A stretch of 64,000 nucleotides of DNA from an uncultured delta proteobacterium (GTDB taxonomy: Bacteria > Desulfobacterota > Binatia > Binatales > Binataceae), in NCBI GenBank assembly GCA_963808235.1, contig CAWEEQ010000004.1, positions 2,560,001 through 2,624,000 on the forward strand, written 5' to 3'. Below are positions 29,949 to 30,461 of this stretch, piece after piece. The first letter of the stretch is position 1. Every line of letters begins with the position of its first letter. The notes beneath the pieces are model-generated. The model was not told the DNA's origin and ran no database searches. It worked only from the letters and a program-made list of their open reading frames with translations. A program made the position numbers and the translations under genes.

Positions 29949-30461
29949 ATGGCTGTGTCAAAAAATAACCTGTTCGATGATGCGCGCCCCGTAGCACGAA
30001 CTGAGGAGATGCTCGTCGAGGAACTCGACGGCGATCTGATAATTTACGACACCGAGCGCAACAAAGCGCACGCTCTGAATCCTCTTGCAGCGCGCATCTG
30101 GAAGCACTGCGACGGGGAACACACGGTGAGCGACCTTGCCGGTCTTTTCGCGGCGGAAACTCCCGATGATGCGGTGGTGAACTGCCTGTTTCAGCTCGAA
30201 CGCCTGCATTTGCTGAACGCCGGCTCGTTGGGCACCGGGGACGGTATGGCGCTGTCGCGGAGGCAATTGCTGAGAAAAGTAGCGATCGGCGCTGCCGCCG
30301 CTGCGGTTATGGTGCCTATGGTCACCTCGATACTCGCACCCAGTGCGATGGCGACCGCGTCATGCCAAGGGTTGAATGCAACCTGCACCAGCGGGAAACC
30401 TTGTTGTTCGCCTCTGGTGTGTTCAGCAACAACCGGCAAGTGCGTCGAGCCTGCTACTTGA
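29949..30461 (+). CDS. PqqD/RRE domain fused to twin-arginine signal and six-Cys knottin-like peptide
   Basis: EELDGDLIIYD...AHALNPLAARIWKHCDG..TV (PqqD); SRRQLL + hydrophobic segment + AMATA; CQGLNATCTSGKPCCSPLVCSATTGKCVEPAT. Confidence 0.85.
   Translation: MAVSKNNLFDDARPVARTEEMLVEELDGDLIIYDTERNKAHALNPLAARIWKHCDGEHTVSDLAGLFAAETPDDAVVNCLFQLERLHLLNAGSLGTGDGMALSRRQLLRKVAIGAAAAAVMVPMVTSILAPSAMATASCQGLNATCTSGKPCCSPLVCSATTGKCVEPAT

Follow-up and report, generated by a model that had tools for sequence, protein, structure and literature searches.

Within a window of 64,000 nucleotides from an uncultured delta proteobacterium (Binatia; Binataceae; GenBank assembly GCA_963808235.1, contig CAWEEQ010000004.1, positions 2,560,001 to 2,624,000 of the forward strand), one open reading frame (ORF) on the plus strand (29949..30461) was found to join a PqqD-type recognition element of RiPPs (peptides made on the ribosome and modified after translation), an internal twin-arginine-type signal and a six-cysteine core with a predicted inhibitor cystine knot (ICK) fold. 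Read from ATG 29949 to the stop codon at 30459-30461, it encodes 170 amino acids. A preliminary description of the sequence had proposed this three-module architecture, which stood, as did the positions of the motif S103-R104-R105-Q-L-L-R-K, of the stretch A133-M-A-T-A137 and of the first core cysteine (C139, from base 30363). The start codon it had adopted probably did not: GTG 29955, giving 168 amino acids, is likelier than ATG 29949 to be the true start, since GGAGG lies 6 nt upstream of it and most close homologues begin with M/V-S-K/R-N. The Shine-Dalgarno-like sequence read there, GGGAGGAGG (29940..29948, plus strand), abuts ATG 29949 and stands 6 nt before GTG 29955. Residues are numbered here from ATG 29949.

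The PqqD domain, or RiPP recognition element (RRE), spans residues 14-95 (29988..30233, plus strand). Pfam family PF05402 (PqqD) matched residues 31-75 with an E-value of 2.7e-9 and 37.6 bits, against a gathering cut-off of 23.4, and was matched by all 127 members of the family alignment used for conservation counts (A2). The AlphaFold2 model of the whole protein, built with the same alignment, had a mean predicted local distance difference test (pLDDT) score of 87.1; by ten-residue block, values were 92-98 over residues 11-90 and 79 for residues 91-100. The modelled domain is a winged helix-turn-helix with strands at residues 21-26, 29-34 and 39-43 and helices at 45-52, 60-66 and 73-85. Comparison of this domain with the Protein Data Bank (PDB) by Foldseek recovered TbiB1 (5v1u, 5v1v), a lasso B1 protein (6jx3), TigE and PqqD (5sxy), with target-normalised template-modelling (TM) scores of 0.61-0.76 (0.70-0.76 for the small RRE chains), probabilities of about 1 and E-values of 0.008-0.02. 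The majority of the PDB RREs matched had been solved with a leader peptide bound. Family and fold searches thus agreed with the earlier assignment of a PqqD/RRE domain to residues ~15-95.

The RRE is followed by the internal twin-arginine-type signal or leader (residues 102-138; 30252..30362, plus strand), composed of L-S-R-R-Q-L-L-R-K, a hydrophobic stretch, V-T-S-I-L-A-P and A-M-A-T-A-S; the hydrophobic region as a whole covers residues 111-131 and leads directly into the last of these. The model TIGR01409 (TAT_signal_seq) matched residues 102-124 with 18.5 bits against a cut-off of 16.7, and both profiles suggested beforehand as checks, PF05402 and TIGR01409, were therefore above their cut-offs. 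A second Tat profile, PF10518, was matched at E<=0.05 by 3 of the 127 A2 members only. Conservation bore out the proposed RR signal with its A-x-A site (AMATA), with R104 kept in 126 and R105 in 125 of 127 sequences. Position 103 was Ser or Thr in 114, P123 was present in 122 and P131 in 125, position 125 was Val or Ile throughout, and Ser or Thr occupied positions 127 and 138 in 126 sequences each (at 138, Ser in 99 and Thr in 27). The consensus leader of the family reads S/T-R-R-x-L-L-R/K-R/K, an Ala/Gly-rich stretch, then L-P-x-V-T-S-I-V-A-P-T-A-A-Q-A-A-S/T-C, and exactly seven residues separate the A-P of V-T-S-I-x-A-P from the first cysteine in 72 of 151 proteins. Because the arginine pair is near-absolute, rather than any basic pair, and because TatC is encoded in the same genome (PF00902, E 1.4e-60), the twin-arginine translocation (Tat) route would be favoured for export. 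The tatC match (G000:C4:2539781-2540416), about 20 kb upstream of the window, was reported with one TGA inside the matched stretch.

Within the leader, the V-T-S-I-L-A-P segment (residues 125-131; 30321..30341, plus strand) is a candidate recognition sequence for the RRE, on the basis of the A2 column counts and of a modelled strand. In the AlphaFold model, residues 101-120 had pLDDT values of 60-69, and residues 121-130 values of about 83 with a strand at 125-129. Since the DSSP bridge pattern of the knot was identical in the whole-protein model and in a model of the core alone, the partner of this strand, judged from the secondary-structure strings, must in the model be the RRE sheet, on which residues 125-129 would dock as leader peptides do in RRE complexes. 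The earlier idea that the RRE binds its own leader gained indirect support from this strand, with its partner placed outside the knot. A complex prediction for RRE residues 1-98 with residues 99-170, each with A2, gave a score of 0.03 against a mark of 0.32, and weighed neither way.

The last 32 amino acids form the six-cysteine core (residues 139-170; 30363..30458, plus strand), with the spacing C-x6-C-x5-CC-x4-C-x6-C. This pattern is not due to chance, since it was kept across the family: C146 and C165 were present in 127 of 127 A2 sequences, C158 in 126, C152 in 123, C139 in 112 and C153 in 106. The core had pLDDT values of 93-96 in the whole-protein model and of 86.9 when modelled alone with an alignment of 24 aligned cores from the loci (A3). 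For the core alone, the matches listed by Foldseek were nearly all ICK peptides, headed by ProTx-I (2m9l; TM 0.75, root mean square deviation 1.7 Å over 32 columns), and the tail of the whole-protein model matched ProTx-I and GxTX-1E; root mean square deviations of the best structural matches were 1.2-2.5 Å, and all Foldseek E-values were >= 0.2. VIA-align, independent of Foldseek and run on 48,161 representative chains, returned GxTX-1E (2wh9; Z 4.7), purotoxin-1 (Z 4.4), J-atracotoxin (Z 4.0) and further knottins; middling Z values are common with this method, and the argument for a knottin lies in the uniformity of the match lists. A phmmer search of the core against all PDB chains yielded ICK toxins in 25 of 26 matches, including ProTx-I (E 0.0017) and GxTX-1E (E 0.0072). 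Toxin families of Pfam were matched at E<=0.05 by some A2 members (UPF0506 by 16, Conotoxin by 13 and Toxin_12 by 6 of 127), with best E-values per family from 6.7e-5 to 0.0027. The core is accordingly modelled, and here predicted, to adopt a knottin fold. This agreed with the ICK framework claimed at the outset, for which ProTx-I and GxTX-1E were the closest matches, and the likeness to hanatoxin that had then been pointed out was recovered as well, hanatoxin 1 (1d1h) being among the structural matches at Foldseek rank 43 with TM 0.70.

The fusion belongs to a large family. A word-based search gave 23 homologues, 15 of them at 69-83% identity, and an exhaustive HMMER search of representatives at 50% identity gave 5713 matches at E<=1e-3 and 2647 at E<=1e-10, a degree of conservation that ruled out a chance ORF. 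The best 150 HMMER matches were mostly 150-200 amino acids long and aligned over nearly the whole query. Among 174 proteins compared, RR occurred beyond residue 70 in 172, and the tail held six cysteines in 107, eight in 34, ten in 10 and 12-18 in a few, the commonest spacing being C6C5CC3C4C (21 proteins). After RR the number of cysteines was even in 167 of 172 proteins, which full pairing of the cysteines would lead one to expect. Two fusions (L028:8001-8540 and L030:8001-8540) have tails of 12 cysteines, arranged as a pair of C-C-CC-C-C units in tandem; this double-knot design resembles the spider double-knot toxin, itself among the structural matches.

Mean pairwise identity was highest in the signal (0.46), followed by the RRE (0.42), and was 0.20 for the non-cysteine residues of the core. 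Ratios of nonsynonymous to synonymous substitution (dN/dS, Nei-Gojobori) were 0.21 (RRE), 0.22 (signal), 0.36 (core) and 0.77 (non-cysteine codons of the core), as calculated from a small sample of seven close sequences (the window and L064-L069) in which pairs are not independent. Even among close relatives the cysteine framework differed, with six or eight cysteines. Judged from these alignments, the family combines a conserved leader with a variable core, as RiPP precursors do. The homologues thus behaved as had been anticipated, in that RRE, RR and a cysteine framework were kept and the other core residues varied.

A scan of one genome per species identified 60 loci, of which about 45 hold the full fusion. 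These were mostly from Acidobacteriota (Blastocatellia, Pyrinomonadaceae, Bryobacterales), with some from Armatimonadota, Rokuibacteriota, Binatia and Planctomycetaceae. L064, L065, L070 and L071 have two fusions in tandem that differ in their cores, and one Blastocatellia locus (L020) held three copies, in a genome with six; the genome of the window has one copy. In 300 further genomes sampled from the same phylum, PqqD-only matches were found and none was full-length. A supposed split copy in genome G302, seen as two adjacent profile matches, is a single unbroken ORF of 179 aa whose linker is longer. A word-based search for short proteins (30-92 aa) resembling residues 99-170, a method weak for this purpose, gave no candidate, and an Atlas search with the same residues gave scores <= 0.79, which are leads at best. 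Related Atlas clusters bore the automatic names 'PqqD family protein' or 'hypothetical protein', and the sequencing runs listed as matching were all soil-metagenome DNA, with no RNA run among them.

In a second arrangement the two halves of the fusion are encoded separately. This split form was found in Alphaproteobacteria (L050-L053, L057, L058) and in one member of the Vicinamibacterales, Acidobacteriota (L055). A stand-alone PqqD was detected in all split loci (tblastn, domain-only match); where a gene was called, it is separate and codes for about 100 aa. The precursor is a small gene (70-190 aa) adjoining HprK-like and NTP_transf_5 genes. After a few residues its leader reads D-R-R-x-V-L-K, a Gly/Ala-rich hydrophobic stretch, P-S-K-W-V-K and P-V-V-N-A-V-I-P-P-A-H-A-A-A-S, in which P-V-V-N-A-V-I-P-P-A-H-A resembles L-P-x-V-T-S-I-V-A-P-T-A-A-Q-A of the fused family. 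The core is variable, rich in Thr, Ser, Pro and Ala, and has zero to two cysteines; in 16 database relatives the first ~50 residues were near-constant and the remainder varied. Against PqqD chaperone models the stand-alone PqqD scored 44.1 bits (cut-off 46), and one of the fusions (L044) scored 24.3 bits against TIGR04353, the HPr-rel-A PqqD peptide chaperone (cut-off 35). As far as these sequence comparisons go, the split form shows the C-terminal half of the fusion to be the counterpart of a free-standing precursor with an N-terminal signal, and the PqqD domain to be its partner. The HprK-like genes of the alphaproteobacterial split systems are ~590-630 aa, twice the length of that in the window, and complete sets of PqqD, kinase and precursor are present in duplicate in L051 and L052.

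In the window the fusion is flanked directly by two enzyme genes on the same strand. Upstream lies an HprK-related P-loop kinase-like gene (28975..29814, plus strand, 279 aa), matched weakly by TIGR04352 (HprK_rel_A) over residues 104-173 (E 2.7e-9); its product had no Pfam family and no PDB sequence match at E<=1. Downstream lies a gene of the NTP_transf_5 nucleotidyltransferase family (30573..31811, plus strand, 412 aa; PF14907, E 6.7e-56). Clustering of the crude ORFs of the 60 loci and the window (61 regions) gave relatives of the fusion in 49, of the NTP_transf_5 gene in 42 and of the HprK-like gene in 40, usually in the order HprK, fusion, NTP_transf_5, as in the window. Other neighbours were less regular, with C25 peptidases (~1080 aa) in 14 loci, TPR proteins in 12, GT4 in 10 (window counted), Wzy_C in 7, Wzz/GNVR tyrosine-kinase-type proteins in 6 and S8 subtilases in 3. 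No recurring ATP-binding cassette (ABC) exporter, radical S-adenosylmethionine (SAM) enzyme, lasso cyclase or B2 protease was found among the clustered regions, and neither a lasso cyclase nor a B2 protease was among the eight window proteins scanned (25.3-35.8 kb).

The Peptidase_C25 (gingipain-family) genes, ~1000-1600 aa, directly adjoin HprK or the fusion in 14 loci (among them L006, L007, L011, L012, L016, L019, L025, L032, L034, L035, L038 and L042; also L063:3453-6464, minus strand), and an S8 subtilase stands directly upstream of the fusion in L015. These peptidases may act in processing or be what the knotted peptides target. In Latescibacterota the pairing of PqqD and kinase is used differently, in that a related PqqD forms the C-terminus of a long protein with radical-SAM/SPASM-like cysteine motifs (L047:2768-4351, L049:79-1047), followed by HprK-like and GT4 genes.

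Beyond the nucleotidyltransferase gene the window encodes a multi-pass membrane protein of ~590-670 aa (31937..33706, plus strand), whose start is uncertain, as its ORF opens at 31691 and overlaps the end of the NTP_transf_5 gene. The 671-aa sequence had no Pfam or NCBIfam family and matched nothing in the PDB by sequence, lax thresholds included. A role as a GT-C glycosyltransferase acting on the exported peptide, which we had considered, found no support. The protein is conserved after NTP_transf_5 in L065 (79% over residues 71-650). It is followed by a GT4/WecA-like polyprenyl-phosphate sugar-phosphate transferase with a CoA_binding_3 domain (33855..35765, plus strand; PF00953, E 8.9e-33, and PF13727). 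On the minus strand upstream of the kinase gene lie a secreted 323-aa protein with an N-terminal signal-like stretch and without Pfam or NCBIfam family (27657-28628), found in the same place in L064, L065 and L067 (64-69% identity), and two paralogous 256-aa secreted FecR-domain proteins (25328-26098 and 26373-27143; PF04773, E 1e-8 to 1e-10), with additional weak matches to the Lsa33 and LipL45 models of Leptospira. L064 and L065 are ordered like the window, with the 323-aa secreted protein on the minus strand, HprK, two fusions, NTP_transf_5 and the membrane protein; L064 shows the start of the latter, and L065 its remainder and then GT4.

A genome of the same genus (G204) is collinear with the window to ~24.6 kb and resumes, inverted, within the GT4 gene at ~34.2 kb, with only ~1.7 kb between those points compared to ~9.6 kb in the window. 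The block of ~9.6 kb (~24600-34200) has the appearance of an accessory island, since it is absent from the collinear site of G204; it comprises the two FecR genes and those for the 323-aa protein, the HprK-like protein, the fusion, NTP_transf_5 and the 671-aa membrane protein. The G+C content is 55-57% at 26-34 kb of the window and ~61% on either side.

Regulatory signals around the fusion were less distinct than the preliminary description had held when it proposed an own promoter and a downstream hairpin. The promoter-like site (29872..29900, plus strand; TGGACA-17-TACATT, 9/12) is weak and near chance expectation, with one match found against 0.6 +/- 0.7 in shuffled sequences. The hairpin is real, a GC-rich stem of 11 bp (30488..30513, plus strand) located 27 nt past the fusion stop; it has no U-tract and was not called in a terminator scan. 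The 117-nt stretch containing it had a folding z of -1.84, and 10 of 200 shuffles folded equally well. An Rfam search of positions 28500-32000 gave no match.

Taken together, we consider it somewhat probable, at roughly 55%, that the locus produces a disulfide-knotted peptide for export, synthesized in one chain with the domain that recognizes it, and that this chain is presented to the kinase and the nucleotidyltransferase. The N-terminal PqqD-type RRE would stay in the cytoplasm and bind V-T-S-I-x-A-P from the same chain as an additional beta-strand; the chain so held would be presented to the HprK-like P-loop kinase and the NTP_transf_5 enzyme, whose likely targets would be the invariant Ser/Thr at 127 or 138, or Ser/Thr of the core. 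The RR signal, doubling as leader, would translocate the core through Tat or, failing that, through the general secretion (Sec) route, signal peptidase would cleave after A-x-A, about two residues before the first cysteine, and the released core of ~32-35 aa would oxidise outside the cytoplasm to a three-disulfide ICK. Export, its route, cleavage, disulfide connectivity, binding in cis, modification and the target of the peptide are what we infer from the sequence. A secreted effector would fit the multiple copies with different cores, the relaxed or diversifying non-cysteine core residues and the accessory location; alternatively, in view of the frequent C25 and S8 peptidase neighbours, the knotted peptides may be protease inhibitors or substrates. 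Of the overall interpretation first offered, a self-chaperoned precursor releasing a knotted peptide, the three-module architecture and, in models, the ICK-like core held, and the promoter and terminator arguments proved weak; it made no mention of the flanking HprK-like and NTP_transf_5 genes, of a split form or of how large the family is.

Several observations weigh against this interpretation. Structural scores for the 35-residue core were weak (Foldseek E >= 0.2; Z <= 4.7), which can be attributed to the small size of the domain, and a knottin may be what AlphaFold produces from any peptide with a C-C-CC-C-C pattern. Pfam toxin families were matched only under their cut-offs, Toxin_12 (PF07740) scoring 15.4 bits against 21 for the window protein. 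The kinase gene is by far under the TIGR04352 equivalog cut-off (36.5 bits against 200). The trio is often situated among polysaccharide genes (GT4, Wzy_C, Wzz/GNVR), so the kinase and the nucleotidyltransferase could serve another substrate. Lasso-type kinases act on a C-terminal Ser, yet Ser is the last residue in only 11 of 174 members of the family, and the window core ends in Thr; the kinase target here, if any, must therefore differ from the lasso type. Classical Tat signals are N-terminal, whereas the RR motif of the fusion is internal, starting at residue 102 of 170, and is N-terminal only in the split form. Finally, the hydrophobic stretch together with V-T-S-I-L-A-P, ~21 residues, appears long enough to span the membrane as an uncleaved anchor.

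The last two points would suit an uncleaved single-pass membrane protein (N-in, C-out), in which PqqD lies in the cytoplasm and a signal anchor, internal as in signal-anchor proteins, displays the knot in the periplasm, there to serve the polysaccharide locus as sensor, regulator or docking element instead of being released; the strict conservation of the membrane segment would then reflect a helix contacting a partner, and the trio does adjoin GT4, Wzy_C, TPR and Wzz/GNVR genes in many loci. We regard this as unlikely, because Pro123 (122/127) and Pro131 (125/127) break the putative helix, small residues at -3 and -1 (A-x-A) stand at a fixed distance before the first cysteine, and the split form has the same leader N-terminally on a small protein; hypervariable cores and tandem copies also better suit released effectors than a sensor. 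Export without modification is distinctly improbable in our estimation. The RRE would then be an export chaperone acting in cis, which masks the signal until the chain is complete, a built-in parallel to the Tat proofreading chaperones TorD, DmsD and NapD, and the kinase and nucleotidyltransferase would act elsewhere, e.g., on polysaccharide. The apparent docking of strand 125-129 on the RRE, the signal being the most conserved region of the protein, the lack of a conserved C-terminal Ser and the abundance of polysaccharide genes nearby can all be accommodated in this way, but not easily the recurrence of HprK-like (40/61) and NTP_transf_5 genes (42/61), which usually flank the fusion directly, in several phyla and with otherwise differing neighbours, nor the presence of the same trio beside split precursors, nor the hydroxyl residues kept at positions 127 and 138 in 126 of 127 sequences.

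Two further explanations were given very low weight. A Tat-type lipoprotein, in which the first cysteine (after A-A-S/T) is a lipobox cysteine that is acylated and processed by signal peptidase II, is highly unlikely because cysteine counts are even: a lipidated cysteine would leave an odd number, and 167 of 172 tails have an even one. A-x-[S/A]-C after a signal-like stretch does fit loose lipobox patterns, with Ser at 138 in 99 of 127 sequences, but 27 of 127 have Thr, which is untypical at lipobox position -1, the first cysteine stands at the ICK loop-1 spacing (x6) from the second, and split precursors have no cysteine there. Very improbable as well is a cysteine-rich tail that stays in the cytoplasm for metal binding or enzymatic cross-linking, with the RR segment as a leader only. 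RREs usually serve cytoplasmic modifying enzymes, and cysteine-rich cores are typical substrates of radical-SAM thioether-forming enzymes, but neither a radical-SAM enzyme nor another cysteine-modifying enzyme recurs beside the fused genes, and the segment scored above the Tat model cut-off and has n, h and c regions with A-x-A.

A broader proposition, which we advance tentatively and hold to be doubtful, is that the family represents a new large RiPP-like class, in which a twin-arginine signal is the leader, read in cis by the fused RRE, export is gated by the HprK-like kinase and NTP_transf_5, working on invariant Ser/Thr in the leader or on the core, and the hypervariable knotted products are used against competitors, predators or proteases, with the split form supplying the missing HPr-rel-A substrate. 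If true, the exported knotted peptide would be the first example that we could trace in which a substrate carries its recognition element in the same chain, and the first in which a Tat-type signal acts as the leader; a folded domain of 100 residues before an RR signal, possibly a built-in proofreading chaperone, would be a new Tat arrangement, and the released products would be a bacterial counterpart of the venom peptides of spiders and cone snails. Knottins are valued as scaffolds for drugs and for imaging, and nearly all those known come from animals, plants or fungi. The family would offer a natural bacterial library, with thousands of different cores on one conserved production module, open to mining and possibly to engineered secretion, and it provides a concrete candidate substrate for the widespread orphan trio of HprK-like kinase, PqqD and NTP_transf_5.

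The family appears to be undescribed. In our literature search we found neither the fusion family nor any precursor with both a signal and a fused RRE described, although the supplementary tables of RRE-Finder might list such proteins, and no description of the fusion was found in the available parts of the RRE-Finder paper and of a 2025 RRE structure paper. The kinds of element involved, namely RRE-dependent peptide systems, Tat signals and knottins, are known, and bacterial knottin-like sequences had been noticed before. The paper on the KNOTTIN database states that such sequences are present in bacteria, without experimental structure, and its text, in the part available, treats them without biogenesis, RRE or Tat context (PMC5753296).

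Among known systems, the lasso B1 proteins and PqqD (5v1u/5v1v, 6jx3, 5sxy) share the winged-helix fold and the Pfam family of the RRE of the fusion. In them the leader adds a strand to the sheet, and residues 125-129 are placed likewise in the model of the fusion. They differ in that the RRE of the fusion is joined to the N-terminus of its presumed substrate, and neither a lasso cyclase nor B2 accompanied it among the eight proteins scanned. In lasso clusters an HPr-kinase homologue puts a phosphate on the precursor, to which a nucleotidyltransferase attaches a hexose, according to the available text of a published account (PMC8498205). Clusters of the paeninodin/pseudomycoidin type thus bring together the same three enzyme types (HPr-kinase homologue, nucleotidyltransferase and PqqD) as the fusion loci. 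Their kinases, however, need the C-terminal Ser that is rare here (11/174), and the fusion loci have, in place of lasso machinery or an ABC exporter, a general-secretion-type signal and a disulfide-rich core.

The HPr-rel-A system of NCBIfam (TIGR04352, TIGR04353) has the same pairing of kinase and PqqD, and the fusion of L044 and the kinase of the window match its models weakly. These matches are under the equivalog cut-offs, and the window fusion had no TIGR04353 match at E<=0.01. We found no paper on the HPr-rel-A system and know of no substrate assigned to it; precursors with a Tat leader, fused or split, may be that substrate.

With Tat signals the fusion shares S-R-R-x-h-h-K, a moderately hydrophobic stretch and A-x-A, and compared to them its c-region is unusually long and conserved. 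The family profile weakly matched N-terminal residues 7-46 of the arsenite oxidase Rieske subunit (E 0.92). Internal Tat signals occur in dual Sec-Tat membrane proteins such as Rieske proteins, and internal Tat-dependent segments have been reported (PMC5449189). In the fusion, in contrast, a soluble folded domain of ~100 residues, not membrane helices, precedes the signal. The core shares the C-C-CC-C-C framework of the spider ICK toxins (ProTx-I, GxTX-1E, hanatoxin 1) and the O-superfamily conotoxins, with a fold that is predicted here and a marginal likeness in sequence; the fusion is bacterial, and its pre-region consists of an RRE and a twin-arginine signal, whereas those toxins carry a eukaryotic signal and a propeptide.

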